Shown: positions 12,627 to 63,400 of the stretch, piece after piece
How the letters are laid out: each line of letters starts with the position of its first letter
Position numbering within the stretch: the first letter of the stretch is position 1
Source: Amoebophrya sp. A120
Taxonomy: Eukaryota; Protista; Dinoflagellata
Assembly (NCBI GenBank): GCA_905178155.1
Contig: CAJINV010000003.1
Span: 10,793,367 to 10,857,366 of the forward strand
Direction of reading: 5' to 3'
DNA: 64,000 nucleotides
Translations under genes and position numbers: made by a program
The notes under the pieces: generated by a model
Database searches by the model: none
What the model saw: the letters and a program-made list of their open reading frames with translations, nothing else
What the model was told of the DNA's origin: nothing

Positions 12627-15054
12627 ATGACTGCAACTTTTACTATGTTAAGCACGGCACCTTTGCAATTGATAGAGAATGTGCAGCAGCAGCTCGACAC
12701 AATCATGAATCCTCCTTCGCGAGAGCTCATCCAGACGTTCCAGGGAATGAAGAACGTGGATTTTACGTTACCGGAGGAGAAACGGAAGGTGAAGAGCAGC
12801 AGCTTTCGCATCAGCCCCTGCTACAAGGACTTGGTGAAGCTCGCCGACGAGAACAGCTTCCGCTACAACATGGACGTCGCCACGGAGACCGCGCTCAAGC
12901 ACAGCGCAAAGAACTCAATGGACGTGGCCAGGGCGCAGTACCAGGGAAGTCTGAAATATCTTCTTGCAAAAACACCACCAAAAACACCTTTGCCGCACAC
13001 CATCAATTTGCTATTCATACAAAAACAAAAAAAAATCACGACGCGTAATAATGCGAATGCCCCTATTTCACAGTCAAAATTTTACTGATTATTTTTTTCT
13101 GCAATACAACCTCAGCCAGAACTTGAACTACAAGAAAAAGAATTACCCTTCAAGTTTCTGTTTCTCATCTTGCCAAATTTGCAACATACTTAAGTGTGAC
13201 TGTGCTGGTGTTTTTTTTTTCTTGCATAAGAAACCGGTGGTGGCTAAGTCCTCCTCCAGCTCCTCGCTTCCAACGAACAAGCACTCCGCCGAGCGCCAGG
13301 CTATGTACGCCGAGGCCCTGTCCGCCGGTGTGGACACAAAACTGCTGCATGCCACTCACTATCCTCTGGAACAAGAGTTGCACTTCAAGTACCGTGCCGC
13401 TCGGAGTCATAAATTTCAATGCTAATAATTCATTGCATTTTTCCTGCGTCGTCATCTTCATTTTGATTTTTACGCTATTGTTGCAGCGCTCATAAACCAA
13501 ACAACTCGTCTTTGCTCAGCCAGAAAAAAACATCGCAGTCGTAAAACCGTTGTCATGTTTAACCGCCATTGATACTTGTGGCGCTACTTTTGCAATTCAT
13601 AGCCGACCGCTGAAGCCGGGCATGGGCAGCTGTATGAGAGTGCATAAGAACTCCCCCTCATCCCCCTCATTGTCATTTTTTGGAGCGCATTTCTAGCAAT
13701 CAAGACCACCTCACAAAAGAGGATCGTGGTGTCGCTTGGACTATGCGGCGGCCCTATGCGAATACGACCAAAAAGCCCACTTCGTGGCCACAGAGTTTGC
13801 ATTTTTTGGGCATTTTGCGTCACGAGCAATATAGGGAAGAAGAGATTGGAATCGGGCACCTCCACTCTCATAAGCTCTCCCGAGGTGCCAAAATACGACT
13901 TGGACGCCCGGTTTCGAAACCAGGCCATCCCGCTCTCGGCGGACGTCGCCTACCGAGTTAGCAACAACGCTCCGGACAAGCACAACCCGGACCTGCACAT
14001 CCACGGCATTGACTACGACCCGTACCTGCACTACTTGGACATGCTCGACCCGAACAAGGTGGGCTACAACGCCGACGAACCGCGGCAGGTAACCGACCCC
14101 TTGTTGGCGCGGTCCAAGCCGGTGCTGGAGCCCAATCTGTGGGGCCAGCTGGCCATCCAGTCCACCCCGTACGGGCACTTTGCGCAGGTGTGCGCCCAGG
14201 GCGCCGACTACAAAAAGGACCGCAACTTTGTCCCGGACGAGTCTGACAACGTGCCTGCGGCCGGGAAGCGCAAGACGCTACGCATAGCAAATACTGATGA
14301 ATCTCGGTCCTCTACTGAGTGAAGATAGACTCCCAGGCTACTTTTCATGGACACTTTGCATGACCTCCCGTGTTCATGTGCTTGACGTTTGTGAAGATGT
14401 ATGCCCTAGCATGATCAGAGACTTCCTGAGGGCTCCTTTTTTTTACCTATAGTCCCGCAGGAGGAATGCCATCTCCGCGTAGCAAAAACTGGATCTCTTG
14501 GTGCTCACGCAATACAGGTTCATTCTTTACAAACAGAATCCAAAGTAGCCGCGACCAGCAACGCACCATTCAGTCACAATCTTCAATACCCCGTCGACGA
14601 GGACATCATATTTGTTTTTGCAATGGATACACACGGTTCACGCGCAATGATGTGGGGATCCTGAAAGGCGAGGTGGCCAAGCGCGGTGAATCCATTCTGA
14701 ACAAGACCGACGTCGTATGAAAGTGCACAACTCCCCTTCCCCTCTGTCATGCAAAATCCCAAATCCACTCTTTGCCTGTTAGCACTGTTTGCATGACAGA
14801 TTCCGGAATCCAAAACACCACTACAACAATTCTCTAGGAATTTGCCATGCAAAAGCTGCATCTTTGCCAGCGCTATTGTCTTGCTGTTCATGCTCAATGA
14901 GTGAATGAATGAGGGGAGAGGGAGTTGCGCACTCTCATACGTCGGGGCCAGCAACGCAGCACCAAACCAGGACCACTTCACATACGAAAAAGGAACGCGG
15001 GTGGTGGATGGCGAATTCCCCCTCGGTAAAATGATGCTGCCGCACAAACACTAA
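12627..15054 (+). CDS. Hypothetical protein, 6 exons, all 5 introns non-canonical (start may be ATG 12705)
   Basis: Strongly GC3-biased exons join in frame across introns 12956-13232, 13407-13605, 13632-13876, 14278-14633 and 14715-14943: QGSLKPVVAK / AARRPLKPGMGSSPEVPK / GKRKTRFTRNDVG / KTDVGASNAAPNQDHFTYEKG...HKH*. Confidence 0.7.
12956..13232 (+). other. Non-canonical stem intron (A-TAT...ATA-AGAA), 277 nt
   Basis: DR GAAA; in-frame join SLK|PVV; IR TGCAA..AAAAACACC / GGTGTTTTT..TTGCA. Confidence 0.7.
13632..13876 (+). other. Non-canonical stem intron, introner family member, 245 nt
   Basis: G-TATGAGAGTG...CACTCTCATA-AGCT; DR AGCT; in-frame join. Confidence 0.75.
14278..14633 (+). other. 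Non-canonical stem intron (C-TAC...ATA-CACA), 356 nt
   Basis: IR GCATAGCAAATACTGATG / CATCATATTTGTTTTTGC; join KRKT|RFTRND. Confidence 0.6.
14715..14943 (+). other. Non-canonical stem intron, introner family member, 229 nt
   Basis: ~30-bp TIR GTATGAAAGTGCACAACTCCCCTTCCCCTC / GAGGGGAGAGGGAGTTGCGCACTCTCATAC; DR ACGTCG. Confidence 0.85.
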
Positions 15055-17373: not shown

Positions 17374-19047
17374 ATGAATGTGACAGAGCTTGATCGGCAG
17401 ATCGAGCAACTGAGGCGATGCGAGTACATCCGGGAGGCGGAAGTGAAGATCTTGTGCACGAAGGCGCGCGAGATTTTGGTAGAGGAGTCGAACGTCCAAC
17501 GCATCGAGGCACCCGTGACCATATGTGGAGACATACATGGACAGTTTTACGACCTCCTGGAGCTGCTCCGCGTGGGTGGAAACTGCCCCGAAACCAGCTA
17601 TCTCTTCATGGGCGACTTCGTAGACAGGGGGTATAAATAAGAGGACTGCTTTTGTTTATAGTTATACATTGTATTTTTAACCTCCGAAAAAGTTTTTACA
17701 GCGTTGTAGATGCTTCATGCAATGCTAGTACTACGCAGAAGCTTGTCTTTCGGCCCTTTATGGTCATAATGGCTTGGAGAACGACGACGATCACGAAAGA
17801 CAAAAATGCCACTGTTGGATGTTGTTGATATCGGAAAAGTAGGTAATCATTCCTCCTGCTTAACAATAACATTCTTAGTATAGAAATATCTTCGACAGAT
17901 TCATGTTGTACTTGTATCTGAGTCAGATCTTGTTCAAGTTCATCAAGATATGACTCATCAGGTTTTATTCGGTTGAAACGTTCCTACTTCTCCTGGCCCT
18001 GAAGGTCAGGTATCCGGAGCGAATGTTTCTAATCCGGGGCAATCATGAATCGCGACAGATTACACAAGTGTTACGCGAGTGGACATCGATTCTTTTGCCC
18101 GTCCCCCTTGGTTCTTGAATCGCAAGATCATGAGTAGCAGCGAAAATAACGACCTGATAAATGATCATGCAGGCTCTGCATGAGAAGTCCATGTACGGAA
18201 TGTAGATAGTGCGATTTCCTCACCTTTTCGAATTCTATCAATATCTGTTTTTGTAATGCAGGCGCTGCCACATCCAAGTGCAAGAGCGGTATTTCCATTT
18301 TATATGTTGATCTTCGGCAAAGGACAAAATGAAAATGAGAGGAGGACCACGGGGTGGGGTAGTTTTGCAGTCGCATACGCGTACGGCTTCTACGATGAGT
18401 GCTTGCGAAAGTACGGCTCCGTGAACGTATGGCGGTACTGCACGGAGATTTTCGACTACCTCGCGCTCTCCGCCCTGATCGAGGACAAGGTGTTCTGCGT
18501 GCACGGTGGTCTGTCGCCCCTGATCTCCAACCTGGACGAGATCCGTGCCATCGACCGTAAATGCGAGGTGCCGCACGAAGGGGCGATGTGCGACCTTCTG
18601 TGGTCCGACCCCGAGGACTGCAACGGGTGGGGCCTGAGTCCCCGAGGGGCCGGCTACCTCTTCGGCGGCGACGTCGTCCGGCAATTTAACCAGGTAAACG
18701 ACATCCAGCTGATTGCAAGGGCCCACCAACTCGTTATGGAGGGGTACAAATGGATGTTCACCGGACCGCTCCCCGTGATGAACAAAAATAAAAGCAGCAA
18801 CAACGACGAAAAGGAAAACGACGGCGACGACAAAATGAACGGCATCGCGCCCCCCGCGGCGAGTGAGAACAAGAGCGGCCTCGTCACAGTATGGTCCGCT
18901 CCCAATTACTGCTACCGCTGCGGGAATATCGCGAGTATTCTGGAGTTCGACGAGTCTTTGAATCAAACCTTCAAGACCTTCGACGCAGCGCCAGCAGAAT
19001 CTCGCGGCGTCCCAGCGAAAAAAATTGCCCCTGAGTACTTCTTGTGA
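17374..19047 (+). CDS. PPP4C: Serine/threonine protein phosphatase 4 catalytic subunit (PPP family)
   Basis: [48 protein letters not shown] and C-terminal EYFL; introns 17631-17961 (GT-AG) and 18071-18381 (non-canonical). Confidence 0.93.
18071..18381 (+). other. Non-canonical stem intron in PP4 (T-TACGCGA...TCGCATA-CGCG), 311 nt
   Basis: Required to restore the conserved ITQV|YGFYDE; no in-frame GT-AG solution; C-rich 5' tract pairs with G-rich 3' tract. Confidence 0.85.
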
Positions 19048-28030: not shown

Positions 28031-30453
28031 ATGGATCCCGCGGAAACCGAGGTGAAAGATATGAAGACCGCAGAAATGGAGAAGGCGACGGAAGAGTGCC
28101 CTGTCACCGGGCGCGAGCCGGACAATCCAACAAAGTATGAGGTCGACTTGTACGCAAAGCGGGAAGTCGAGAAGGCCGAGGACGAGCTTCACGGCCTGCG
28201 TGAAAAGAGCCGGCATTTCGCCGGTGACAACCGCTTACAGCGCATTGAAACGGCTGCGAAACAGGCCCGGGAGAATGCTATGGCGAAAAACGCAGGGGAG
28301 AAGAAGTTTCGAGAGTCGGATTTTACGGTGGAAAAATTCGTGCGGGGAATTCCGCCCTGGTTGCAGAGCAAGCCCGGAATGATGAAAAAAGACGAGACAA
28401 CTCCGATGCCGGACCACTGCAAGAACAAAATGAGACTGTATGACGCGGAATCAAAGGTTTCAAGAAATCAAAACAAATGTTTTCATTTTTTGAATAACGA
28501 GACAAAATGCTAACTCTAACATCATGATGTAACCAGCCAATAAGTGCGACCACACCAGCACGTCATTCGTTCCTGCTGAAGGAGTGGAAGTATTGTGGTC
28601 TACCAGTAGACCATTAACAGTATGTCCCATCGCGTGACAATTATCCTATCCAGCAGGTGTATTGAAGATTGTCGTTCCATGTCGTCGCGATTCGCCCTGA
28701 CACAACTGAACTGAAGACGCCAAATCAATCTAGAACAAGCAAAGTAAAAGTTGAAACACAAAAAATCAATCACAGGTGACCTCGCGCCAATCTCTGAATG
28801 ATATGAGAGTGCACAAGAACTCAACAAACTCATTCGACGTGTGGCATTACTTAACATAAAAAAGCGCATGAAATAGAAATTGTGGACTGGGCATGAGAAG
28901 TTGACTTAGAACGAGGGGGAGTTGTGCACTCGCATAAACGATGCTGACCCGGTAGACCTCGAGCTGCGCATGACGGACATGGCAACACACGCCTACTACA
29001 TGTGGGTATGGAAGCGTCAGGATCGAAGTTGACAAGTGTGGAAATAGAACTTGCGATACCAATAGTTTGGCCCCCGTCAATTTCTAAGAACAAGCGCATC
29101 ACAACCAAAACCCAGTTTGACATACTGTCTGGGACAAAGAAGACTGGTCTTGTCATGCTCCGTCGCAGCTCTAATATTAGTAATATGTATAACCCTAGGC
29201 AGTCTTCCACTTGGCCTAGTTTGCCTGCTCTCTATCTGTGTCTTGCGCTTTATGCATATCACTTTTTTTTCTTTTTCAGCTATGTCGATCTTGATCCTGA
29301 TGGTTCCATAGTGGGGCCAGGCCAAATACCTCCTTTCCCTGGTAGCCATGCACTATGCCATGCAAAGATGTCTTGTGGAAGGTCGGAGACGGACGAGACA
29401 TGAAAAACCATGCATGGCCAGGAGCGTTGATTGATATTTGGTCATGGTCTCGTGACAATGGCACTATTCCTGTAAAGAACATTTCCGATGTCGAAGTTTC
29501 CCCCGAAATGCTGCGCTATAATTTTTCGCTCTCTGTCATGCGGGGGCAGTGCAGCTTGTCATGCGTACGAAGACGAAGAAACAAAGAACAAGAACACGCG
29601 CAACAAGGCGTACAGCTGGTCGCTCGAAAAATCCTCGTGCACATTGCCAGTCGCTGCGCACTAGTATACATCGCTTTATGTCGAAGTGTATCTGTTCTTG
29701 CGGTCCTTCTTCTTGTTGCACCTATGTATGATAATTTTTTTTATTCGTCAATCTTCAGCTTTCGGTTTTGCCACACAGACCAACATACAGGCAGATTTGC
29801 AATGGAATCGCGCTCTCCACAAGCGAAAATGGCTCGGAACCTGGAAAATGTCGCGCACGACGTATCCCGAGAAAGGACCTCATCCCTATCCAAATTCGTT
29901 ATCACAAACATGAAGTACCAGATGCTGGCTTCGGTCAACATGCAAAACATCAGCTCCCCGTTGAGTGGATCCTCAGGATAGCATATGGCGCAGGTGCTCC
30001 TGGGAGATGAAAAAGGCCATTCCATGATGATCGTGATAAGGATGCAAAAATGCATAAGGGCGGGCTTTTCTTTTTTTTTTCTGTGGATACGCAGCCTACG
30101 AGTCCTCCATCAGGGTGATAAAGGCCGCCGGTATTCCCCGGATGAAGACGAGCCCGTATCTGCCACTGTACGAAACGGGCGTCAAAAAAGCCGGCTTTCT
30201 CGACACGGCAAACCCAACAATCGCGGAAGCTGTACTACAGCTAGCGACTTGTAGGCGCGGCACGACAGAAAAAATTGACGGCACAGGAGATGAGGACGAG
30301 CGCAGCAGGAGAATGAATCAGAGCAAAACAGCACTCAGTGTCTTCATTTCTACACAGTATCACTCATCCTCGCCACAAGAAGCTCTTCATGGAAAGCTAC
30401 AGGAAGAGAGAGGCCTATCGCTATCTGGTTTCGAGGTCGGCGTTTTTTTCTAA
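28031..30453 (+). CDS. Hypothetical multi-exon protein (middle exons uncertain, possible frameshifts)
   Basis: Exon 28031-28456, GT-AG intron 28457-28775, micro-exon VTSRQSLND, non-canonical intron 28801-28940, exon ADPVDLELRMTDMATHAYYM; probable GT-AG intron 29994-30094. Confidence 0.55.
28801..28940 (+). other. Non-canonical stem intron, introner family member, 140 nt
   Basis: A-TATGAGAGTGCACAA...TTGTGCACTCGCATA-AACG; DR GAT; in-frame join. Confidence 0.75.
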
Positions 30454-36157: not shown

Positions 36158-39100
36158 ATGCCTTCCCCAACTAATGCGACACCACGAAGTGCGCGGGACC
36201 AGCACGAGCGCGAGAAGATGTTAAGCTCGCGCGCCGATGCGAGTATCGCGGCGGGTCGGCGGCACAGCATGCGGTGGCGCGTCCTGGCGATGACCTGTGT
36301 GGGCCTCTTATGGCTTTCTCAAACGCTACGCTGATCGCTGTTACATAGTTTTTCTGTTTTTGTCGCACAGAAAAACTAAAATACACTAGCCCACTGCCAC
36401 TTCAAACGGACACGAAGATAAACATAAAGCATCGTGCTTGCATGACATCAAGGCCCTCGCGAGGACTTGCTCAACAGTATTGAAGAAATCTTATCTAAAC
36501 ACAAAAAAAATGTACCGGAAGACGCAAAAAACTCTCGGCAGTTTCGCTTTTCCTTTGCATGACGTCGTGACAGCGATTCATGTAAAAACGGTTGAGAACG
36601 CTATATCTGTTTGGGCAATTTTATGCGTACGACAATCCGTCCACGCTATTCAACGCCATGAAACAACGCTTCGGGCACGACGAGCACTTTGACATCCACT
36701 TCAGCATGCTCTACTCGCTCTACAGCTTCCCCAACATTGTGCTCCCGCTCGTCTGCGGCATCCTCATTGACCGAGTTGGCATTAAGGTAAAAAGTACAAC
36801 ATCTTCCACTTTTATTTCGTTGTTTGCGTATGACGAAAATAGAAATACTAATTTCATCAAAGATTGTTTGCTTGGTGCTTTGTCAGAGCAAAGCGGATGC
36901 TGAGCTGTCATTCAGCTACGGCTCACTCATGATTCGAGGACGACCTCGACTTGCTCACAACTATTTATCGAACACAAGAAAAAGAATGAAGCGTGATCGT
37001 GAAGATCGTGAAGGAGTGACAAAGACGTTTATATTTCAGTAGCATGCAGCGACGACGATGGATGACGATCACCATCTGCATCTCATCACGATTATTCTCT
37101 TTAGAAGAGGACTCAGACTCCTGACAGGAGAAAGACACAAACATATTGAATAATGTGACACTTTTTCTACAACAGGTGAGCGTGCTTGCGCTAGCTACGT
37201 GTGTAGTCACGGGTGCGGGACTGGTAGCTTTGGGCTGCAGGGCAAACTCTTGGACACTGATGCTATGCGGCCGCGCGCTATTCGGAATCGGTGGTGAAAG
37301 TCTGCAAGTGGCACAGAACGCACTCCTCTTCTCGTACTACAGTTGATTTCAGACTATTTCCATGCTGTTGCATTTCTTTTGGTTTGTTTCCTCGCTGCAA
37401 CTCTCTCCATGTGGTCGATTCGGCGCAGAGGAATACGAATATGACGATAGTGATATTAGATCAGAGGAAATAACGACGAGAAAGTCCCAGTGTTTTCAAA
37501 TCTGTCCTCTACCAGCATATGTACTATTCATCTTGCGTTCTTTGTGAAAATGAGGTGAAAAAGCCAACGGCCTTGTCGTCTTCTCTCTAGGTACTTCGAG
37601 GGGGCTGAAATCGCGTTGGCGCTGGGCTTGAATTTGAGCATTGCACGCATGGGAAGCTCGGTGAACGCCATTGTGACTCCCTGGATTGCCACACTGACCA
37701 ACAACGACCCTGTGATTCCGTTCTTGGTGGGGTTTGTGCTGTGTGCCATTTCCGGTCTCGCAAACTTCGGGTCCGTCTGGGGCGAGAAGCTGACGAAGGC
37801 GGCCGATGATGATGAAGAGGTGTCGCTGGGAATGATCACCAGGCTACCCAGGCACTTCTGGTACCTGTGCGCCCTGTGCGTGCTCATGTACGGGGCAATT
37901 CTTCCCTTCAACAACATCGCTCAACCGCTGTTCGTGGCAACGTACTCCTTGTTATCTTCTTTCTCTTTGCAGTATCAGATTCAGAAGGCAGCATGTCGAT
38001 AGGATAGTTGATTGTCATTTTGGTTTTTCAACGCTTCGCAGGAATGTTTCTCATGCACAGGGTTCCATCTTCTGTTTGGTTTTCGTGGATGCATTGTGCA
38101 CAATAAGCGTCACGAAAGAACAACTCCCTCAAGGCTCATAAATACTAAAATCACAGGACCTACAGCAATGAAGAAGTTGCAGTTGGAAGCGCCCACGCTT
38201 CTCGTGCGGCCGCGTGGATGTTTATCATCAGCGCTTTCGCGACCCCAATTTTCGGGCATTTCGTTGACAAGTTCGGGCAGAGAACGATTCTGCTTGCTGC
38301 GAGCGCGACCATTTTGGCGTTTACTCACGGCATGATGCTGATGCTAAGCCCCTACATGGCCAGCTTTCAGCTCGGCTCCGTCTACACCGTTTTCGCTGCG
38401 GCGCTGTGGCCGAGCATTGCTCTCACGGTCGCGAAGAACTGCCTCGGCACCGCATATGGCGTTACGGTCTCACTGCAAAACATCGGCTTGGCTCTGATTC
38501 CCTTGCTGGTCGGAGACCTACAGCAGCGAACGGTATAGCTATTGCAATTAGATAAGTTTTTAGTTTAAGAAAAAAAATGGGATAACTAATGGTCGGCATC
38601 TGTTCGCTTCCCTTGTCTTAGTTTGCTCTTCTTGCTGCACATATAATGCTTTATGCTCTTCTTGCTGCCTTTGGCTGTGCATTTTGGTCTTCATTTGATC
38701 ATGTTGCACGAATTGCTAGTTGAAAGCAAGAGCAAGGAACTGCTTACCCTTTTCATTTTCTCAGAGTCAGTGTGTGGATGAAAGTTTGTCTTGGTTTCTC
38801 GAACCTGAAGGACAAGATCAAGAAACACTACAAAGGTCCACAAATGAGGTACACGATGTCAACATGGTCATCTTATATAACATGGGCAATATGATCCTGA
38901 TCATCAATTTTGTCCTCTCACTTGTTCCCATTTCCTTATCTTGCGTTATGAATGGCATAAAACAGGAGGGGCCAAGCGTGACAGAAGAGCAGAAGCTTGC
39001 GGGGTACGGAGAAATCGAGAAATTTTTCACGTTTATCGGCCTCGTCTCTACTGGTATTGCGTGGGCGCTGCACTTCGAGGCTGGGCCGCTGAGCCCGCTC

Positions 39101-42903: not shown

Positions 42904-45900
42904 ATGGCTCTTCTTGAGACAGGGCGCATCCTGTACAATGACACGATATCCGTCAAGCTCAAGTCAGCCGACAAGGACGAGTCTGTGGCCACCCTGAATG
43001 TCAAAATACGGTAAGACCAAGTAGAGACTTGCTTCATCTAAATCTTCTACACGATGTCATCATGTAGAATCAGACAAAAATACTCACGACCACAGATGTG
43101 TATTGGTTTGAATTATATAATATATATAAATATCAATATGATCATGCTCCTCGTGGTGCCCCCCGCTGCCCGCTGTGGGTCTGCTTCTTCGTGAGTTGGC
43201 TACCACGGATACCTATGCGAACTTGAGCTTCCTTGAATAAAGCATAAATATTAGGATTAAGGCCCAAGAGCGTATTTTCTGCCAGTTTTATGTATCTCAA
43301 AGAAACCCAAACTACACGTACACAATGGAGCAGCCTTGGTAGAGCAAGGTTGTGAAGCTGTAGCTGCAGCGCCATGCAGTCAAAGTAAGTACTGCTGGTG
43401 TGCTGGGTTTATTTTCCGGTGGCATGATACTTTTATTGCTGATGTCTCATTCCTCCAGGTTGGACCTTACGCCGTCGCACCATCAGGTGCTTCTTTGCGA
43501 CCTCACCGACACAAGCGATCCATTTTTTCTGTACTCGTTGGTGCTGGGGGAGAGCGACTTCCACGCACTGAAGAATGAGCAGAGGTTACTTGTGGACTTC
43601 CAACAGTTTCCGTCCCAGCTTGTCAAGCTGCTCGATGAGACCAAGCGCGGCCCACCCCCGTCGCCACACCGTATATTTATATTACTAAAATTTTTGCGCC
43701 AGATCTTGATAGTTTGTTCACTTTTCTTCAATCTACAAGCCACTTGTACTGCGCTACGACGTTGACTTGCTAAATTCTTGATTCCGGGGAGGACGGTATC
43801 CATTTTCTGCGCTTTCCGTTTCCATGAAGTTGAAGAGAAATAGAATGTCGCACGCGGTTTTCCAAAATAAAAGGCTGACTGTACAACCGAGGAGATGATA
43901 GAAAATATTTCTTTGTCCACCACAGATAACCAAAGCTTTGTTTCCTCGCCGGGGACGCTTGGAGGCTCGATAGCGGGTGGCGGTCCGGGGGCGATTTTTG
44001 CGGTATTGAACATCGTCTCCGGACATGAAGCGCTCTTTTCCATTACGGAATCCAATCAGTTCCGCGAGCTCCAGCACCTGTCGCTTCATTTCCGCAAGGG
44101 CAACGACGCGGCGGTCAAAGAATATCTGGCCGCAAAACTGCCTATGAGAGTACACAACCACTCTTCGCCCGCAGTTCTTGATGCAGTGATCGATGAATGT
44201 ACTTAGTACCTGCAGCAACGCGAGTGGGAGGAAATAAAGCAACAGCTCAGCCACCACGAGGTCCACGACGGAGCCTTGGGATTGTAGTACTGTTTCGGCT
44301 GCCGAGGATTTTTCTTGGTCACGCTGGAACAGCCGATGAAACAGGAAGTGGAACGAAGGAAAAAATAAAATAAGAACCTGACTCGACATTTTGCATGACA
44401 ACAAATTAAAAAGAAGGGCCGGGGGGGGGGGGTTGTGCGCTGTCATGATGTACGACTACATGGGACAATGCCAAGATCTGCAGACGCGAATAGGCATCGC
44501 GGACAGCGACAACGCGCGGCTGCGCGACCAGGAAGCGAGCGCACGACAACAGGCGGAGCAAATGAAAATGGAACTCTTCACCACAAAAGAAGCTATGTCC
44601 GCATCGTTCAGCAAGGAGCTTGCTGACGTGAAGGAAACACACGCGCACGCGGTTTCTTCCATTCAACAAAAGTTGAACACAGAAAAAAGCAGTTTGGAGA
44701 AATCATTGCGCGACGAACTTACAGCAAAGGTAAACGAGTTTTTTTTCATAGGCATTGTAAGACCAAAATAGACAGTAAGTAGATCAATATCATCAATTAT
44801 CGTTCGATCAAGCATGTAATTTTTTTACGCATGTTATTCATGGCGGCAGCGCAGCCGGAAGACGGCGTAGCGCCTAGGGTATGTGCGGCTGTGAGCCTGG
44901 TGTCTCATGTCTCATGTCTTGGAGCCGTGTCATGACATGAGGACACGAACATGGACATGACACGGCCGTTTTCATGTCCATGTCTTCATGTCCCGACACG
45001 TACCGGCCCTGGGTCGGAGGAACATGATCTGCTCATGTCCCATGTCTCATGTCTTGGTGGACCCGAAAGTCAGGACATGAGACATGAGACATGGGCATCC
45101 GCGACACTTTCTGGCTGAGGCTGTAGGACACAAGACATGAGACATGGGACATGACATCGCCGTGTCCCATGTCCCATGTCTCGTGTCTCAGGACATGAGA
45201 CATGAGACACGGGACATGACATCGCCGTGTCCCATGTCCCGTGTCCCAGGACATGAGACATGAGACACGGGACATGACATCGCCGTGTCCCATGTCCCAT
45301 GTCTCGTGTCTCAGGACATGAGACATGACATCGCCGTGTCCGTGTCCCATGTCTCGTGTCTCGTGTCCCAGGACATGAGACATGAGACACGACTTCGCCG
45401 TGTCCGTGTCCCATGTCTCGTGTCCCAGGACATGAGACATGAGACACGGGACATGGCATCTCCATGTCCCAAGACATGAGACATGGGGCATGACATCGCC
45501 GTGTGTCCGTGTCCGTGTCCCATGTCTCGTGTCCCAGGACACGAGACATGGGACACGGGACATGGCATCTCCATGTCCCGTGTCTCGTGCCCTAGGACAC
45601 GAGACACGAGACATGGCGCATGACATCTCATGAGACGGGCCAGTGGCGGCTCGGGTCAGCGGCGGCACGCGTCAGCGGCGGCACGAGGCCCTCGGCTCGG
45701 GTCAGCGGCGGCACGCGGTCAGCGCAGACATGAGACATGAGACGAGCCAGTGGCGGCTCGGGTCAGCGGCGGCACGAGGCCCCCCCTCGGTCTAGCGGCG
45801 GCTTCCGAGTCAGGGGCGGTCAGACAGACGAGCCAGCGGCGGCCCACGATGCGCCAGCGGCTCAGGCCAGCGGCGGCACGAGCCGTCGGGCCAGGGGCGG

Positions 45901-48900
45901 CCAGACGAGCCAGCGGCGGCTCGGTTCCGTCAGCGGCGGCACGAGGCCCTCGGGTTAGCGGCGGCCTCCGAGTCAGGGGCGGTCAGACGAGCCAGCGGCG
46001 GCCCACGATGCGCCAGCGGCTCGGGCCAGCGGCGGCACGAGCCGTCGGGTCAGGGGCGGCCAGACGAGCCAGCGGCGGCTCGGGTCAGCGGCGGCACGAG
46101 GCCCTCGGGTTGGCGGCGGCCTCCGAGTCAGGGGCGGTCAGACGAGCCAGCGGCGGCCCACGATGCGCCAGCGGCTCGGGCCAGCGGCGGCACGGGCCGT
46201 CGGGTCAGGGGCGGCCAGACGAGCCAGCGGCGGCTCGGGTCAGCGGCGGCACGAGGCCCTCGGGCTGGCGGCGGCCTCCGAGTCAGGGGCGGTCAGACGA
46301 GCCAGCGGCGGCCCACGATGCGCCAGCGGCTCGGGCCAGCGGCGGCACGAGCCGTCGGGTCAGGGGCGGCCAGACGAGCCAGCGGCGGCTCGGGTCAGCG
46401 GCGGCGCGAGGCCCTCGGGCTAGCGGCGGCCTCCGAGTCAGGGGCGGCCAGACGAGCCAGAGGCGGCTCGGGCCAGCAGCGGCACGAGTCGTCTGGTCAG
46501 GGGCGGCCAGAGGAGCCAGCTGCAGCTTGGGGCAGCATCGGTCGCTCGCGGCCGGATGGTCTGGTGGCGACACTTCGCGTGGGTTGGTTGAGGTTTGGTT
46601 GGGTTGGTTGGTGAAATGGGTGTCCCATTCCCGACATCCCAGGACGAAACATGGGAACGCCATGTCCCATGTCTCATGTCTTCCGGCCTGAACCAGAGTC
46701 GGCCGCGGGCGGTCGTGTCCCATGTCTCATGTCTTGGGACACGAGACACAAGACATGCGACATAGGAACACCATGTCCCATGTCTCATGTCTTCCGGCCT
46801 GGACCAGAGTCAGCCGCGGATGCCCATGTCTCATGTCTTGTGTCTTGAGACACGAGACATGAGACGCGAGAACATCATGTCCCATGTCTCATGTCTCATG
46901 TCTTCCGGCCTGGACCAGAGTCGGCCGCGGGCGGTCATGTCTCATGTCGCATGTCTCATGTCTTGTGTCTTGGGACACGAGACATGAGACATGGGGACGC
47001 CATGTCCCATGTCTCATGTCTCATGTCTTCCGGCCTTAGCCAGAGTCGGCCGCGGATGGCCATGTCCCATGTCTCATGTCTTGGGACACGAGACACAAGA
47101 CATGAGACATGAGAACGCCATGTCCCGTGTCTCATGTCTCATGTCTTCCGGTCTGGACCAGAGTCGGCCGCGGATGGCCATGTCTCATGTCTCATGTCTT
47201 GGGACACGAGACATGAGACATGAGAACGCCGTGTCCCATGTCTCATGTCTTCCGGTCTGGACCAGAGTCGGCCGCGGATGGCCATGTCTCATGTCTCATG
47301 TCTTGGGACACGAGACATGAGACATGAGAACGCCATGTCCCATGTCTCATGTCTCATGTCTTCCGGTCTGGACCAGAGTCGGCCGCGGATGGCCATGTCT
47401 CATGTCTCATGTCTTGGGACACGAGACATGAGACATGAGAACGCCATGTCCCATGTCTCATGTCTCATGTCTTCCGGTCTGGACCAGAGTCGGCCGCGGA
47501 TGGCCATGTCTCATGTCTCATGTCTTGGGACATGAGACATGAGAACGCCATGTCCCATGTCTCATGTCTCATGTCTTCCGGTCTGGACCAGAGTCAGCCG
47601 CGGATGGCCATGTCTCATGTCTCATGTCTTGGGACACGAGACATGAGACATGAGAACGCCATGTCCCATGTCTCATGTCTTCCGGTCTGGACCAGAGTCG
47701 GCCGCGGATGGCCATGTCTCATGTCTCGTGTCGCGGACATGGGACATGAGCATGAACATTGGCCATGTCTCATGTCTCATGTCTCATGTCTCATGTCCTG
47801 GTTTGGGATGTCGGGACATGAAGACATGGACATGAAAACGGCCGTGTCATGTCCATGTTCGTGTCCTCATGTCATGACACGGCTCCAAGACATGAGACAT
47901 GAGACACCAGGCTCACAGCCGCACATGTTTAGCGCCTACCTTTTGTAGCCTTCACGCATAGTTGCTTTTTCTGGCTCATATTCTTGGTAGGTTTTTGGGT
48001 TTTCTGACCTCTAGACGGATGAATTTCAAAAAGGCTGTTACCAAGTTCTGGCACTTGAAGATATCAATCAATGCAGATTTCTATTCTCTTCAGATATATA
48101 TCAGCCTGCGACTATTTGTAGTAATAACCCAACGCACGTACAACGAACTTTTGCAGGCCCGAGCACTGGAAGTTTCTGATGCAAAATGTGCTGACCTTGC
48201 GGAGAAGCTTTACAAAATGGAGCTGACGTTGAAGCAGACGTCTGAGAGGCTCGAGCTAACCGACAAGGGCCGAAAAGAGGACGCTGTCCTGATCGAGGAG
48301 TTGCGCGGCACTTGCAGAAGCCTCGAGATATCCTCAATAACGACCCCCCCACCGCAGATTTGTGAAGCAAAACTGCAAGCCCAGATGCAGAACATGTGCG
48401 TCTCTCAATGATGATGAATATTGATGCACATCATCAGCCCGCCCGTGAGATGTCGCCCGCAGTTGTGTTTAGGAATTTCTCATGCTCAAAAATCAGGATG
48501 TATGAGCAGGTCGGTTAGCGTTACTAGATAGTCATGCGGCGCCGTGAGCTGAGCACAGGCACAGCTATGCGGTGGCCTAAAGAACTTGTCATGCGCATTT
48601 CCCTAAGCTCCACGATTTGTCTTGGGAATTTTTTATCTTTGCTATGGGGTGGGGACGTTTTTCCACTAGATACGAGAAAGTGAAATTTCAGCAGGAGAAA
48701 GATCTGAACGAGCAGGGAAGTAAAATTCTGACGCTGGAGGAACGCGTGTCTGGACGAGAGTTGAACTACAACAACCAAATCGAAATCACGAAACAGATCG
48801 AGGAAAAGCAGAAGCATTTTGAGGAAGCACGTATTGAACTACGACGATGCTACTTTGCGCACGTAATAGGCGCGCATACAATTTTTACAAATGGCGCGTA

Positions 48901-51900
48901 TCGTAGTTCTAGTTTCGCAGATTTCAATTCCACGCAAATAAAAAAGTGCTACACGAGGAGAAAAAGTTTCCGCACGACGGTATTATGGACTTGAGTATTC
49001 TGCGTTCTGTATTTCGTCGGGCATAATGTTATGCACGACTTGTAGATCATTGTGATTATAATCATAGTGATTCAGGTGGTTTGATATTGAAGATAGATAT
49101 GAAGAATATAGGAGAAGTACTCCTGCCGTGCACAGCTAGAGAACTTGAGCTAAGAAGTACCACTTCTCAAGGAGGTGGTCCACTGCAGCCTCCGAAAGTG
49201 CGGAAAGCATGTAAAAAAACTTTTACTACAGTGAGCGAGAATAAGGCGCATTGCCAGGAGTTGGAAGAGAGATGCGCGGAGTCGGTTGCGGAAATTAACA
49301 AGGGCAACAGCATTATCCTCAAGTTGCAGACGCAGGTGAAAAATCTGAAGTCGAAGCTTCGCGTCAAGGCGGTGGCACTGCAGCAGCAGGAGAAGACCAT
49401 AAGTGACCTGTATCAAATTGAAAAATGCCCCGAACCCCAGAAAATTCAAATATTCGCGTTGCAAAGTTTCCAAATAGAAACTTGGGCCTTTTTGCAACAC
49501 AAAGTTTTGCTCTTCTTGTATGAAAACTCGTGACGCTGATACAAGCGAGGTGGAAAGTGTTTCCATAGGGAGCTTTTGCAACGCAAACACTCACGCCGAG
49601 GCATTTTTCATTTTGATAACCTGGAACGAGACAGGCACGCGATGAGTAAAACGGAGGACGTGCGGAAAACGGAAATAACTGACGGTCGCGATCTATGGGA
49701 TTGTCAGGATTGAAATCGACAAGCTTGAAAAATATTGTAACGCATGAATCGCCATGCCGTTGCCGAAACTGGAAGGCGCGGCAGCAGGGGCACTTGTGAG
49801 CCTGTTTTGGGGTGGAAAGTGAGCTGCTAAAGTCGCGCGACAGACACAGAGGACGCCACTTTTGCCCAAACAGCATGACGAACAGGATTCCTGTGCTTGG
49901 AAAATTTGTCATGCACTCCTTGGAAATTGGCATTGGGCTTCCAACTGGCATCGATTTCGTGCATAGCAAATTCTGCAACTTTGTCGATTCCGATCCTGAC
50001 GCTTCCATACAATCGCGAAGCACGTAATACCAGTGTTTGTTATAAGAGCGAAATAAAAGCTGATACCGCTACTGGGTAGCCGTACTATCTTGAAGCTTTT
50101 TCGCTCACGTTACTGCGACTTCTTTGCTGCAGCTTTTGCATTACCGCAGATGAAATGCTGTACTCTCGTATCAGGCATCAATGCTGCAGCATGTCTTAAA
50201 GTACGTTCTGACATACTTTTTGAGGAATCAAATGCACTACATTCTCGCTGCGTTATGAGTACTACAAACTGTCCACCACTTCTCCTTGTCAGCTACTCTT
50301 TTTGATTTATAGTCGCTGTGCTCTGAGTACTTCGTGTACGAAAGAGATACGATGCCTTTGCGTCAGGCTTCTGTGCTGCGGATGTTGGTTTAAAATAAAT
50401 GTTCATTATCTTCGAACGGCTGGCGAGCCTGTGAGTCCAGGCAGAGAGAAGATAAGGGTAGGTAATTTGATAGGTATGCGAGGGTCGGGCCCCTTCTCCT
50501 CATTGCTCTACTATGTATCTGCTTGGCTAAAAATGGGCAAGCGCCCCGTCCCGGCTAGACGCCGCCCGATTCGATCGCGCGATCGAAATTTGCGCTTCTT
50601 CCTCTTGACGTTTTCAGCAAGCGCTGAACAGAGTCAGGGGAGCGCAGTAGCAATTAGAAAAGCCAAGTGCTGGCGGGTACTGCCGCGGCCAGCTTGCATC
50701 CGCTTTCCGAACTGGGGAGCGAGTGCAGATCCTCGATCGGGGACTGAGCACGAGGTGTGCGACTGCAGATCCCTGCGCGAGGCGTAACGCCCAGAAATCT
50801 ACGTAGCTGCATCGCAGCTCCTTCTGCCGACAAGAGTCGGCGCCCGCGTACTCGCGACGCCCGGGGCCGGGGGTCGCTCGCCCGTGAATCATCGCGCGCG
50901 CGCATGTTCCGGGAGAAAATGCACCGCGTGCTTCTGGTTGAATGAAGCACCGCTTGGACGGGCTGAGTGGCCCTCGCTTTCAGTAAGAGCAGCGCACAGC
51001 GCAGCCGTGGAGCCAGCCTCGCTCCAGCGCGCCCGGCGGCAAGCGTAGACGCTAAAAGGCCGGGGCCGCCGCGCCTGCTCTAGGTAGGAAAGAGGCCAGG
51101 CGGCCGATTCTATGGGGAGCTTGCCTGACTACAGGCGGAGGCATCACGTCGGTCGCTGCGCAAATGCTTTGTTGCGCGCTGCAGGGGCTTGTGTTGCCGA
51201 AGCCAGGCCCCACTCAAGGCCAAGCGCCGAATACGACGAGGGACCGCGCGCGAGGCCGCTAGCTACTCCGGCCGGAGGGTGCTTCCATCCAGAGGCGCGC
51301 GCCTCTCGTAACCCGCGAAAACGCGGCGCAAGTACATCACGCAGTGGCACGCCACTACAAAAGCCCTCATGTGGCTAACCTCTACGGAATGGGCGCCCCC
51401 GCATTGGGGGGCCGCCCGGCAGTCGCCTGCCTGCGAATTCGGACAGACTCGCTGCGCGATGAGAACCGCGCTCGGGGTCTTGTCGCCGCACTCATGAGTG
51501 CGGGCGAGCGCCCCACCCCCATTCACCCTCCCTTATCTAGTATTGGGCCTCAGAAGGGAAAACCCTCCGGCGGAGTGGGGGGGCATGCTCCCTCGTTCAG
51601 GACGCAGCTTGGTCCGTGTTGGCAATGGGGACAAGTGATGTGCACGACCCTTCCTGCGATGGGAGTGGTATCAGGATCGTGCATACTCGCTGGTAGGCTT
51701 TGCCTACCCTCTTCCCCATCGCTGTCAGAGTATGCGCCCTGCCGCCATGACAGGACGGCGCGAGACATGTGATACAAATTACGTACTATTGATGATCATG
51801 ATGTGAAAAGCAAAAAAACACGATCAGGACTGCAAACGGAAGTGGATCAGTACCGAGAAAAACTGAACGAGGCCCACTCCCTGATCGCTATCCACTGCAA

Positions 51901-53029
51901 AACTAGTATCGTACTTGTACTTACAAATTTCCATTGCAAGTGGTAGTCTAATATAATGCATGACAAGTTTGTATGTGTTAGCGTTTTCATACATAAATAA
52001 AAAAAGTCAGCACTTTATTTGCAATTTTCAGTTTATTTCTTTTCCAACTTGAGAAAATGCCTAATGGCCAATGCAGTCTCTACTAGTACGATACTTTTAG
52101 AATGCATAATGGCTTCGAATCAGCAAGTCATCGAATACCTGAACAAACAGCTTACGGAACGAGATCTGAAAACTTTCGCGCCACTAAGTATCTAGTTTGT
52201 TGCAGGCTCGATATTGGTGACCTATTGCACGCTCCCCCCCAGTGCAGTTTGATGATGAAACTGATGGTAGTGAGAGCGTGATGCGTTACCGCTTGTGCGG
52301 CTCGGCCAAAATATAAAATTGTGAATTGATCTGCAGGTACTGTTATCTACCGTACACATTTTCCTGCACACGTACCGATGCAACAAGTAAAATTTCAGCA
52401 TACCATTCTTTTTTCAACCCTGGTGCTGCTCGGCATCTAACTTTGTGATGCATTTTGTCCGTGCGCAGGAAATTTGTACTGCATAACTCTTAGCCTGCCC
52501 ATAAGAGACACACGGAGTACTCGCGGTGCTATCGAAACTGCGTCTCAAGCTTCCGCAGCCCCACCAATGAGTATCCCAAGGAAAAACGTCCTCACCTTAT
52601 ATTTTTATATTGTCATGTAGATCTTCATGATCATGCCTACTAGGCATGAAGATCGTGCTGGTTCATCTGGCATGACGAACTCCCAGACCGCGTCAGAATA
52701 TGCTCCTGATGGGGCTACTTATCTTACGGCAGTGTATGAATGTAGGCCGGCTGCACTAGTAGCTAAAAATGGCTACACTGCGAGCCCAAGCTTGCCACGT
52801 GCATGCACTTGATGCGCAGTCTCAGTCTGTTTATGTCCTGAGCAACAGCCGAAAACTAACCTTGGTGACACTCCCAGCTTCCCTTGACTCTGGGATGGGG
52901 ACGTTTTTACTCACGACAGTGAGCACTGTGGCACTAGTCCAGCCGTCTCCAGGAGCTGCCTCGACAGCCGTACCGGGCACCACGCAATCTGAGGCTATGC
53001 AGTGCAGGCATTTCTGGGTCTGGGAATAA
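42904..53029 (+). CDS. SASS6: Centriolar cartwheel protein SAS-6, ~13 exons (C-terminal end approximate)
   Basis: LTDTSDPFFLY..EQRLLVDFQQFP, ESNQFRELQHLSLHF..GND, EINKGNSIILKLQ..QQQEK, SNQQVIEYLNKQL; GT-AG introns 43011-43458, 43671-43925, 44730-48156, 48831-49231, plus non-canonical introns. Confidence 0.9.
44142..44451 (+). other. Non-canonical stem intron in SAS-6, introner family member, 310 nt
   Basis: C-TATGAGAGTACACAACC...GGTTGTGCGCTGTCATG-ATGT; joins the head domain to the coiled coil in frame. Confidence 0.75.
44877..47929. mobile_element. Non-autonomous foldback/Mutator-like DNA element inside SAS-6 intron 4
   Basis: Perfect 118-bp TIRs 44881-44998 / 47809-47926; 9-bp TSD TAGCGCCTA at 44868 and 47930; interior of CATGAGA/CATGTCT 7-mers with ~155-bp and ~104-111-bp tandem arrays. 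Confidence 0.9.
48328..48676 (+). other. Non-canonical stem intron in SAS-6 (A-TATC...GATA-CGAG), 349 nt
   Basis: DR CGAGA; join RSLE|KVKFQQEK; IR AACGACCCCCCCA / TGGGGTGGGGACGTT. Confidence 0.8.
49410..49622 (+). other. Non-canonical stem intron in SAS-6 (G-TATC...GATA-ACCT), 213 nt
   Basis: 18/19 TIR TATCAAATTGAAAAATGCC / GGCATTTTTCATTTTGATA; inner GCGTTGCAAA / TTTGCAACGC; DR ACCTG. Confidence 0.8.
50462..51782. mobile_element. Probable GC-rich insertion enlarging a SAS-6 intron
   Basis: Composition shift; short IR GTAATTTG...CAAATTAC at the ends; this intron is ~2 kb versus 130-500 nt for most others. Confidence 0.35.
51888..52112 (+). other. Non-canonical stem intron in SAS-6 (C-TAT...ATA-ATGG), 225 nt
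   Basis: Restores EAHSLIA|SNQQVIEYLNK; DR GCT; IR AGTATCGTACT / AGTACGATACT. Confidence 0.8.
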
Positions 53030-54348
53030 GTTGCAACTTGTGGCGCTTCTATCGCTTTCCTGTAATGCATAATCTTATCAATATCAATAGCTCAGTGCAA
53101 AAGCGCAGCTTCCTGTTCATGCGAATAAAAGGCAGGAGTTTGTCCTGCCCGCTAGAAACGCGACGATAGGTTTGCAAATACTTGTCATGTTGCTTGGCTG
53201 CACAAGCACATCGAAAAGCTGCAATCTCTTCCAATACAGCCTCACAAGGTTCCAGACCCAAACGCATTTGTAGTTGATTGCGGCTGAGGCGCGTCAGAAG
53301 CGCATTGAAGCACTACTCCAATCACGGGGAGTGCCGCTCGTCGGCCCTGTGCGCTACCAACGCCCGGAAAACTGATAAAAGTGATGTTTAGCACCGGACT
53401 GCACTACTACTTGCTGTATTGTGGCCAAGCAGATGGTTCTACTTTGGCTGTAGCAAAGTCTACGCCGAAAACGAGAGCTATGCTCGATGACACAAGTACC
53501 TGTTTAATGTTTGAATTATATATTATCAGAACCTACGCGTACCCACTAACCATGGGAACAAAGAGTAGACAAACCACAAATCTGTCGATGTTTACAATCA
53601 GTCAATTTCTATCTCAACCTAGTACAACAGCCGAAGAAGTAGGTTCTACTCTATGGAAAATATCGTTTGGGAAATAGATTACAAGCTTCGTCGTGTTTCT
53701 TTGGCATTCGTGACCGTTGCGGTGGTGTTAAGTAGTGAAGCTGGTTTAGACCTCCAACCAATATGATTGAAAGAACCTGCGCACTCCGCGACAGGAAACT
53801 TGTGTGCCTGCGGTCAATGGTTTCGGCGCACCGAGCACAACGTGTTAGTATTGGTTTTTCTCGATAAACCTAAGTGTTGGCCTAAGTGAGTCCTAAGTAA
53901 AACCGAAGTAATCCCTAAGTCTTTTCCCGGACTCGTGGCCGACGCAGAACCGCGGGAAAGTGGACCGGAAGAGGGTTCCAGCGGAAAGGAAAATCCCGCG
54001 GAAGCAAAACAAGTTGGGGCGTATCGGCGCGGTGCAGGTACGTTCCGGCGGGCAAGATTAGTGGGACCGGCTTAGAGGGAAAAAATGACCAGCGGCGTCC
54101 TGTTTGGCCGCGCAAAGCAGGGAAAAATGCCGCGGGGACATAAAAAGAAAGAGCCAGGGCACGAAAAAACTCGCGAAACTAGCCAAAAACCAAAAGGCGC
54201 GCGCAGCGTGGAGGGTGCTCCGCCCGGCTTTGCGGGCGACCGTCGGAGCTTGTGGATGCGCCGCGCGCTGCCCCGCCGGCGCCCCCGGCGCTTTCCGCCT
54301 GGAAGCCATTCTGTGGCGCTTTTTTGTGTCGAAAATAGCAAAAAAGGT

Positions 54349-60464: not shown

Positions 60465-63400
60465 ATGCAGACCACAATCGAGCCCATCCAGGGGATCCAC
60501 CGGGCCGCTCAACATCAGGAGTCGGATACAGACTCCTGCGAGAACGATGTGTCGCCACACTGGAAAAGCCGCAACAACGCCGGGTACAATCCCAATGACC
60601 TCCTACGGAACAGCTACAACAGAAATAATGTCGGGTTCGGCGCAGAGGTACTTCTACTTGCTTATGTCCTTAGAGGAACGAGTTTGATATTGACAGACTG
60701 CAAAGATGAAAGTATCAAAGCACCACAACTCTCGTGGGACGAGATAGTTGTGATGTGCTGCGCAAAAACAAAACTTTCTGCCTTGGTGGAGGTTTGAATG
60801 AGCAGGGTCGTTGCATCAGTCTGCGTGTTTATATACACAATTGAAAATACTAGAGCATGATGAATATTTTTTAGTCTGATCAGGGTGCTAGTACGACGCG
60901 CAACTACAGGACTCTCCGAAAGCTGACCCGGTGTTTCAGCGGCCCAAGGACAACGGGGCAGAGCCGCGCTTCGTGAAGCGGTCCTTCAAAGCCCCAGCTG
61001 GGGATATCGCACGAAAAAACTGTTTCAGTGTGAACTTGTGATGAAGAGAATGCCACACACACATGTTTGTCTTCGCTAGAAATGCAAGACCATAGATTTT
61101 GATTTTATGGAGGTTTCTCTCGGAAAGCGCGCATGGCAAACTTTCTGTGACAGACTTCCAGCAAAATTATCATGATGAAATAGTTTTTCTTTTTTTCGTG
61201 GGATAGGGGACACGTCGGAGGCGCCAAGGACAAGTTTAAATCAGGATGCACTGCAGCCAGGAGCAAGCATACCTCCAAAGCCAACCATGCCCGGGAAACG
61301 AAATATCCGCTCCCTACGTGCAGACGCGGAGCGGCGTGCGTCGGGCATGTTGGACAACAGTGGCATGATACAGGCAAACCCCGTGGCGCTGGGAAGTCTA
61401 CCACCCTCTATAGGCAGTGAGCAGCACCACGGGGCGGTAATGGGGCACGATTCGCAAATCGCCCACTCAAGAGTACGCAGGTACGACCTTTTATGCTTCT
61501 TGCCAGGAGTGATTGCAAATACGTGTAGCTATAACAGTTTGCATTTTCTACGTATAAATACGTGACTTCTGTTACTGTTTATGTTTTGACAAGAGCCTGC
61601 ATGTGGCCGCTCGTGCTTTTTTATTCACCAGATGTATCGTTGTAATTCAGCTCGGCAGCTACCTGACAAACACAAATGATGAAAAACATAATGACTACAG
61701 TTTGTACGAAGAGGAGCCCCCCGCCCACACAATGGACCAGCTGCAGCCGTCGGGGCCATCAGATCAAGTAATACCCGTCGTGGTAGCGAACAATCCACAG
61801 CACCAGCAGATGAGCAACGTGCATTCAGGTTCTTGGAACCCGCCGTCCCCTTCCCCACCGGCCCGACCAAACTTCGGTGGTCCGGTGCCGATGTCAAGCT
61901 ATGGCAGCACTCAACCGCAGCAGCAGGGCGGATATCCCTGGCAAATTGGTGCGCTGGCTCTGGAAATAAACAAGTGCACCAAACTTGTGACGCGGCGTCC
62001 TGCCGCTCAAACTAAATTGCAATGAAGATCAATCTGCTTTGCAGCATGAATATATACAAGATGTTGCCCACTACTTTCGGCCATGCTGAGAAGGACTTTT
62101 CATGCAAAAGATGCACGACAGTCAAGGCCTTGCAGAACGTGTTAGGCCGCTAAGCCCTGCGGCGCTCCAGCAGATTTTGAGAGGCCTGAAAAAGCTGCAT
62201 GACAACACCATTCCAGACCCAGAGGCATTTTCGCATTTGATACTGGCTTGGGTTCCACGATTGTGGAAGCGGACATGCGCGTGGTTTCAGAGAGCAGCTC
62301 AGAGGAAGACGAAGAGGAGCGGCGGCAGATGGAGCAACACATGCAAAACAGCCCCATCATGCAGGGCCAGCAGGTCAATTTGCAAATGGGCACGAACGGG
62401 CAGCTGATGGGGCTTGAGCCGCGCGTGGAGCCCATCGCGGAAGACGGCTCGGTGATCCAAATGGAGCATCAAAGCCCCCAAGAGGTGGTCGTGATCAATC
62501 AGGATAACCAGGAAATCAACAGTGCCGAGTATGTGATGCGCACTTCGCAGCCGGCGCCAAACCAGGTAGTGTTTCGAAACGGAAAAAAAGTACCGTCTTT
62601 GCACGCCGCCCGGCCCCTCCACTTACCTCCGGAGAGGTTCGGCACCAGCGTGCAGCTTAGAAAAGATTTCGTCACCCAACCTCTACCCTTCGCGGATCGA
62701 AGTCACACATTACAGGTAATTTGCTCGTAGTGAGCTTTTTATTTGTGGTTGACGTCAATAATTCAAAAACTCATCAAATGTCTACATCCGTAGTGCTGTC
62801 TGCCGGTAAAAAATTCCAAGACCTCTAAAAGATCCTCAGAATGTTCCTTCTCCTCGATCATTCGATGATGACGGAGGAGGAAAAGAGTGGAATTCTTTGC
62901 GTTCATGTTTCATCTTTACCATCCGGTGCAATGCGAACAGGCGCGCGTTGTCCGAGTACGCGAGGGATTGAGCGGTAAGCTATTTCCCACTTACCATCTC
63001 TGCATTCGGAATGGTCCCGGGGCCGATGAGACCATCCTTCTGGCCGCCCAGAAGCAAACCGGAAAACGCAGCTTCAGCAGCTACTACCTGATAACTCTGG
63101 ACCCACGCTGTTTTCAAAAGGGAGCGTCCACCTACGTCGCAAAACTGCGCGCAAACTGGGCAGGAACAGAGTACTTTTCATTGTATGCCTGTTTTACACC
63201 TAGTTTCGCAGTTATTTTCCCAGCAAACAGCAACGACAACAGCGTCTTTCGACGCTCTCAGACTTTGGTACAGCTCGGGACCTCAGCTGCGCACGTAGAA
63301 CTAGCGCTCGCACGAAAAAACGACGAAGGTACACTTTATTTTCGGATGGCGATAACCCGAAAAAGACAAAGCGGCTCCGCGGGTCAGACAACGCTCTCTT

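Follow-up and report, generated by a model that had tools for sequence, protein, structure and literature searches.

How are intron ends recognized in a genome where most introns do not follow the GT-AG rule? More than 60% of the introns of Amoebophrya A120 and A25 are non-canonical, with their signal and mechanism left open in PMC7789003. A 64,000-nt stretch of the Amoebophrya sp. A120 genome (contig CAJINV010000003.1, positions 10,793,367 to 10,857,366; hereafter "the window", with coordinates counted from its first base) raises the question in concrete form. An earlier sequence-only reading had listed 16 introns there without GT-AG ends, bounded by a TAT...ATA stem and longer than the stem span by exactly 5 nt. 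We find that the 5 nt stem from an inverted-repeat DNA transposon, which duplicates 5 bp of its target site, a point that reading had missed. The mRNA lacks the element together with one copy of the duplication, so that the exon is restored; with high confidence, the register in the window is 1+4 (the 5' cut one base before TAT and the 3' cut four bases after ATA), leaving the first base of the intron and its final four free. Neither the intron class, already known as the A120 introners of TAT type (Farhat 2021, PMC7789003), nor its transposon origin is new; the fixed register combined with a code of three bases is apparently undescribed so far.

The RNA evidence comprises contigs of runs X3 and X6 and covers 12.5-32.4 kb of the window. 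These contigs skip four GT-AG introns and hence represent spliced cDNA; they show zero differences from the window exons in the pieces listed, and run X7 behaves as genomic. The RNA tally rests on 15 joints listed of 24, comprising 4 GT-AG introns, 10 non-canonical gene introns and 1 joint (31719>31817) that fits nothing. Within the slide permitted by direct repeats, 10 of the 11 listed non-GT-AG joints obey the rule; the exception, a 97-nt skip seen in one run in a high-copy region, with neither TAT nor GT-AG ends, was excluded from the tallies as a probable repeat artefact. Beyond the RNA-covered region annotated proteins served as junction evidence; these were annotated by a BLAT/transcript pipeline designed to handle non-canonical borders and are not independent of X3/X6. 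A motif-plus-stem scan was noisy (several true introns were missed or mis-paired, and one training end was 1 base off) and was used for leads only. Altogether 18 further TAT-class introns were found beyond the 16 listed earlier, and the working set comprises 34 (11 supported by RNA, 17 by protein and 6 by frame only), all on the + strand.

Two genes could be enumerated completely from their proteins, and in them the rule holds for 17/17 non-GT-AG introns, alongside 11 GT-AG introns. In the SAS-6 gene (42904-53375), 8 rule-placed non-canonical and 6 GT-AG introns give the annotated A120 protein P0001 exactly. The non-canonical introns are 44142..44451 (3' end ATG; the only single-intron solution for P0001 at that site), 48328..48676, 49410..49622, 49693..50013 (new, and predicted by the scan before the protein was consulted), 51888..52112, 52343..52489, 52571..52922 (3' end ACA) and 52995..53283 (new, 3' end ATT). 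In the CEP104-like TOG gene recognized by Pfam (3620-8478), 9 rule-placed non-canonical introns, all of them new, and 5 GT-AG introns give the A120 protein P0008 exactly: 3787..4011, 4072..4371 (5' end C-TAA), 4401..4620, 5299..5527 and 5529..5702 (an abutting pair), 6103..6438 (3' end ACA), 6483..6600, 6646..7011 and 8180..8388.

Most of the 16 introns proposed from sequence stood up to this comparison. Six agree with RNA joints, namely 12956..13232, 13632..13876, 14278..14633 (TAC at the 5' end), 14715..14943, 18071..18381 (also TAC) and 28801..28940; the gene around 18071..18381 gave a Metallophos match in the domain search, and we take it to encode a PP2A-family phosphatase. Five more (those starting at 44142, 48328, 49410, 51888 and 52571) yield P0001 letter for letter. 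Two had to be redrawn. For 13407-13605 the RNA joint, found in two runs, is 13358>13606, and the intron is 13359..13605 (C-TAT...ATA-GCCG), where sliding is impossible; since both versions keep the frame, the choice could be made by RNA alone, and the supposed CAT variant of the 5' end vanishes with the correction. The other, 52188-52489, does not give P0001 as any single intron; the simplest of 64 two-intron solutions consists of an ordinary GT-AG intron (52188..52336), a 6-nt exon (52337..52342) and the intron 52343..52489, which the sequence-only reading had merged. The orthologues from AT5 and A25 (P0002 and P0003) share the residues that the 6-nt exon adds, and both corrected introns obey the rule. 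The remaining three, 36308..36609 in an MFS-like transporter gene (weak MFS_1 match) and 61004..61209 and 61932..62246 in a Tubby-family gene (flanking exons matching P0007), are supported by an open frame: at 36308 totals of 2, 5 and 8 are all stop-free, and a Tubby homologue search returned a single 53% relative, too distant at the junctions to fix the register. A search for related SAS-6 loci in metagenome contigs gave 594 pattern matches, none confirmed.

The other new introns lie in two regions. RNA joints define 29006..29314, 29353..29812 (3' end AAT) and 29862..30093, and an RNA loose end at 12675 matches the exon upstream of 12493..12678. The introns 10880..11237, 11724..12056 and 12110..12426, each with a perfect 5-bp repeat, were proposed by the scan and keep the frame open.

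The constant total of five corresponds to a trace of insertion. Of the 17 stem registers scanned without gaps, the one with a total of 5 unpaired nt, as in the earlier relation between intron length and stem span, came out best in 29/34 introns and tied for best in 2 more. A 21-letter pattern taken from the end of one family retrieved 47 loci in metagenome contigs, of which 42 had a clear partner end (41 distinct); L001, L026 and L044 were dropped for want of a good partner end, L006 and L045 for want of room, and L012 as a duplicate. In 28/42 of these same-family elements (27/41 distinct) the 5 bases before TAT equal the 5 bases after ATA, and the mean flank identity is 0.91 at length 5 vs 0.14-0.31 at lengths 1-4 and 6-9. 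With such a 5-bp flanking duplication, "stem span + 5" amounts to the element and a single copy of the duplicated target site. The duplications in the window show varying decay, from 5/5 down to 1/5 matches, and a 5-bp repeat with at least 4/5 matches is present at the borders of 24/34 introns. The young intron 14715..14943 belongs to a multi-copy family, with relatives 68-84% identical among the loci L002-L047 (the family search was made for this element only). Reading frames in the metagenome loci are less informative: the frame stays open across the junctions in 36/41 at each of +2, +5 and +8 and in 29-32 at other lengths, which cannot separate +2, +5 and +8 and is a poor guide to orientation.

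TAT-class introns thus likely derive from miniature DNA transposons. The terminal inverted repeat starts with TAT in 31/34, followed by an A-run (A at +12, +13 and +14 in 23, 28 and 23 of 34). The bodies of the 34 elements are mostly unrelated, and an internal motif CATGACA (on either strand) occurs in 17/34 non-canonical vs 0/13 canonical introns; its presence in mostly unrelated bodies suggests one transposase system, for which the motif is possibly a binding site common to the families. In 21 of the 58 A120 rows of PMC12130899, most families are assigned to DNA elements with terminal inverted repeats, and what we presume to be the duplication-length column has the value 5 in 3 of these rows and 2-4 in 11, while 7 have none. 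The integrase-type Ginger2/Tdd elements offer a lead, but only a lead, to kinship: TDD-4 and TDD-5 also make 5-bp duplications, the ends TGT...ACA are one base from TAT...ATA (PMC2836005), two window elements end in ACA, and an integrase-like A120 introner family has been reported (PMC12130899). No transposase was found in the window, where no search aimed at one was made. Membership among Ginger transposons proper, which have TGTNR termini and a Gypsy-like integrase (PMC2836005), was rejected, as the window termini are TAT.

The abutting pair in the CEP104-like gene arose by insertion of the second element at the duplication of the first. The 1+4 register would leave a 1-nt exon (5528..5528) between the two; the same mRNA results from a single 403-nt cut across 5299-5702 at 1+3 or 0+4, and cutting the outer ends at 1+4 shifts the frame (11 stops), so the right ends must be matched.

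A perfect duplication hides the position of the cut, and only decayed repeats reveal the register. Among these, 1+4 is the only solution allowed at 13359 (by RNA) and 44142 (by protein); an offset of at least 1 is needed at 13632, 4401, 6103 and 8180, an offset of at most 1 at 14278, 29353, 29862 and 52343, and offset 1 is permitted by 34/34 introns. For a true offset distributed evenly over 0-5, the 11 RNA-supported intervals would all contain offset 1 with P = 0.001. The earlier placement of the cuts 1 (possibly 2) nt before TAT and 4 (3) nt after ATA is narrowed to 1+4. That no GT-AG pair is required proved right: 0/34 introns are GT-AG (8 begin with GT and 1 ends with AG), 25 different terminal dinucleotide pairs occur, the first base is A, C, G or T in 13, 10, 8 and 3 introns, and the last four bases look free. 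The exon base after the intron (A13, C8, G8, T5) follows no purine rule. In tRNA-type introns with a bulge-helix-bulge, a 4-bp helix between two 3-nt bulges leaves 1+6 nt outside the intron stem; such an intron was rejected here, where 5 nt lie outside the stem and flanking direct repeats cannot pair. A U12-type intron was likewise rejected, with AT-AC ends in 1/34 and the minor snRNAs reported absent (PMC7789003). Table S4 of the same paper is in line with the register: its 9 predominant A120 motifs all start with N-T and have varying 3' ends.

Which feature of the termini sets the cut? Numbering intron bases from +1 at the 5' end and from -1 at the 3' end, T+2, A+3 and A-7 are each present in 34/34 introns, and their pairing partners -5, -6 and +4 are each conserved in 31/34 (3 variants apiece), without compensatory change. 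The terminal pairs are thus broken in 9 of 102 cells, always on the same side; the one-sidedness of all three pairs has a chance expectation of 1 in 64. The ends do pair more than expected: end duplexes have z-scores of -1.0 to -10.5 vs -1.3 to +1.2 in 15 canonical introns, none of which rises above shuffles. The earlier statement that nearly all these introns have complementary ends holds in the sense that the mean end-to-end pairing exceeds 0.4 in 28/34, but the TAT/ATA pairs themselves are predicted in only 17-19/34. For the intron 13359, exact by RNA, folding predicted no end-to-end pairing, with a TAT/ATA pairing probability of ~0. The canonical donors of the window read GTA in 14/15, with T, C or A at +4, which makes the non-canonical 5' end the same donor minus its G. 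In A25 the repeats start with TTA and the 9 predominant motifs all start with TT (PMC7789003); the stem there appears to begin at +1, with T+2 and A+3 kept. With pairs that break one-sidedly and without compensation, the cut probably follows base identity and not the end of the stem. A ruler measuring from the end of the stem, as the sequence-only reading proposed, is not the best account, given the uncompensated breaks, the unpaired 13359 and the shifted stem of A25.

Between the two machineries first proposed, a relaxed spliceosome and an endonuclease/ligase system, the spliceosome fits better. On the strength of the sequence patterns we lean towards a modified major spliceosome with a relaxed GUA donor, a putative branch nucleotide at A-7 and a 3' cut 6 nt downstream of it. 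The 5' end N-UA(U/C/A) would be the ordinary GUA(U/C/A) donor of this organism with its first G released; the invariant A-7 would serve as the branch nucleotide, and the 3' cut would be placed 6 nt on by distance and not by AG. The end-to-end stem may join the correct two ends, perhaps substituting for the U1 snRNA, undetected in this genus, and would then be unwound. With symmetric ends and a 1+4 register that adds up to the length of the duplication, insertion in either orientation would be silent, which would let the elements spread through exons. According to PMC7789003, A120 has U2, U4, U5, U6 and most spliceosomal proteins, with U1 undetected. Precedents for parts of the scheme are the U2 spliceosome of Fritillaria, which removes non-GT-AG transposon introns (bioRxiv 2025.08.15.670264), and the fixed branch-to-AG spacing of Yarrowia, Trichomonas and Giardia (PMC2483917), which by our own count would place the branch A at -6 and -8. 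A more general proposal, which we advance tentatively, is that for most A120 introns the major spliceosome may have come to do without the first G, the final AG and U1, and may need just U+2/A+3, a branch A exactly at -7 and the end stem, a code that would match, base for base, the 5-bp duplication of the transposon from which the introns arise.

Several observations weigh against the register, the code or the spliceosomal reading as just set out. The exact junctions number just 2, and the one exact by RNA has a 22-nt short side; contigs lose rare splice variants, so the register may still wobble. The asymmetry of the terminal pairs amounts to 9 variant events, and the invariance of T+2 and A+3 is partly built in, TA having served as the anchor. 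Spliceosomal removal normally depends on a non-Watson-Crick pair formed by the two terminal bases of the intron; here +1 and -1 look unconstrained, with no trace of this pair, a state further from the norm than that of Fritillaria, and around A-7 there is no branch-site consensus past (G/C)ATA. Four metagenome elements vary at the critical A. By frame length three of them are antisense to the host gene, which fits; the fourth (L029:696-926) appears to be sense, with TTA for ATA at its 3' end and hence T at -7. A codon score agrees on orientation for L014 and L029, is neutral for L025 and disagrees for L041; one of the exon sets used to train this score was out of frame, and at several other loci the two ways of assigning orientation conflict.

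The rival that deserves most attention is a non-spliceosomal endonuclease plus ligase, of the kind suspected for the nonconventional introns of Euglena, that recognizes the TAT/ATA end of the stem and places its cuts 1 nt and 4 nt beyond it. The freedom of both terminal bases would suit such enzymes, as would the predicted end-to-end pairing and its excess over canonical introns, the failure to detect U1 in A120 (PMC7789003), and the layout of the Euglena code, N3-CDG...CH'G-N5-6 (PMC12501133); moreover, the abutting elements 5299-5702 require a matching of right ends, a job that a stem could do. What makes this rival appear rather unlikely is that the terminal pairs break on the same side every time without compensation, that the stem end is not predicted to form in 13359, that the 5' motif is the canonical donor lacking its G, and that the A25 stem seems to start at +1 rather than +2. 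A protein could conceivably read bases asymmetrically, so these points weaken the nuclease/ligase explanation rather than abolish it. We consider unlikely a compromise in which the spliceosome acts but takes the position of its 3' cut from the stem or from a divergent acceptor factor, with a branch point other than A-7. It would accommodate the apparent T at -7 of L029 in gene orientation and the lack of an extended branch consensus; a T-rich block conserved at -15 to -18 (23-29 of 34) could bind the factor, and divergent U2AF paralogues serve in this way in Fritillaria (bioRxiv 2025.08.15.670264). However, A-7 is invariant in 34/34 while its partner +4 varies, and the T-rich block mirrors the A-rich positions +12 to +16 and so may be merely the transposon end.

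Two further explanations dispense with a fixed register or with splicing itself. Hairpins with direct repeats provoke template switching, and the joints might thus be artefacts of reverse transcriptase or else reflect excision at the DNA level. This is the least probable of all the explanations considered, as 13359 has neither a direct repeat nor a predicted end stem, the reading frames that the joints restore are conserved in proteins of AT5 and A25, and run X7 continues through the 28801 element without skipping it (piece 28488-29103). Alternatively, the +5 could be due to duplication alone, with splice sites sliding inside it; the 5-bp duplication by itself accounts for the total, and PMC7789003 describes splice sites whose position varies with respect to the hairpin. 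The junctions at decayed repeats, however, bound the offset to 1 from both sides, and with the above P-value for the RNA intervals, sliding is contradicted in the window and highly improbable.

Comparison with described systems places these introns within a known class and sets their code apart. As in the A120 introners of PMC7789003, whose repeats start with TAT followed by seven bases and an A-run and which carry 3-5 nt direct repeats and form a hairpin, the window introns (from the same organism) have TAT and A-run repeats, short direct repeats, a hairpin and no GT-AG, and they are RNA-confirmed (10 joints and 1 loose end). They differ from that account, in which splice sites vary relative to the hairpin and direct repeats are varied, in having a duplication of 5 bp, the 1+4 register and three invariant bases. 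No statement of the 1+4 rule was found in the accessible Amoebophrya/Syndiniales intron literature, although the logos of Fig. 3 and S19-S23 of Farhat may show part of it. The nonconventional introns of Euglena (code N3-CDG...CH'G-N5-6, then a purine; PMC12501133) are likewise a majority class, probably derived from miniature inverted-repeat transposable elements, and carry a short paired motif with constant spacing to each cut, which came to light when slidable introns were removed. Their CDG/CH'G motif at 3 and 5-6 nt, with complementarity as part of the code, contrasts with TAT/ATA at 1 and 4 nt; A120 has no exon purine rule and tolerates mismatches, and the lineages are unrelated. With motif and offsets different, membership in the Euglena type was rejected. 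In Fritillaria borealis, too, inverted repeats of introners supply splice signals, and a U2-type spliceosome with modified recognition acts on them, as we favour, by inference, for A120; the Fritillaria termini are the repeat ends (mostly AG/AC and AG/AT) and U1 is kept, whereas the A120 termini lie in a random duplication and U1 is undetected (bioRxiv 2025.08.15.670264). In introns of Yarrowia, Trichomonas and Giardia the spacing between branch motif and 3' site is likewise short and constant (our own branch being putative); unlike the TAT-class introns, they retain GT and AG together with a strong branch consensus (PMC2483917).

The combination of an N|TA...A-7 code with the 1+4 register makes single-base predictions about the branch position, about mutations that should block splicing and about the pattern in A25. 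It would explain the free spread of these transposons and would allow the correct placement of tens of thousands of slid junctions. If spliceosomal, these introns would be cut with no constraint on either of their terminal bases, which goes further than Fritillaria; if not, they would represent a second, independent Euglena-like system of mRNA splicing.

Some other features of the window may be mentioned. The SAS-6 gene contains two long GT-AG introns, 44730-48156 (3.4 kb, filled with short tandem repeats) and 50024-51827 (1.8 kb). Tiny exons adjoin TAT-class introns at 50014-50023 (10 nt) and 7012-7016 (5 nt), as does the 6-nt exon 52337-52342. An Rfam search of the window gave no match. Raw reads of run X12 match only a short stretch at 19885-19956, where their loose ends resemble poly(A), and another close to 31.7 kb; both are probably repeats common to another organism in that run. 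The intergenic region 55385-57432 contains a perfect 965-nt inverted repeat with a 118-nt spacer, which is either a fold-back element or an assembly artefact.

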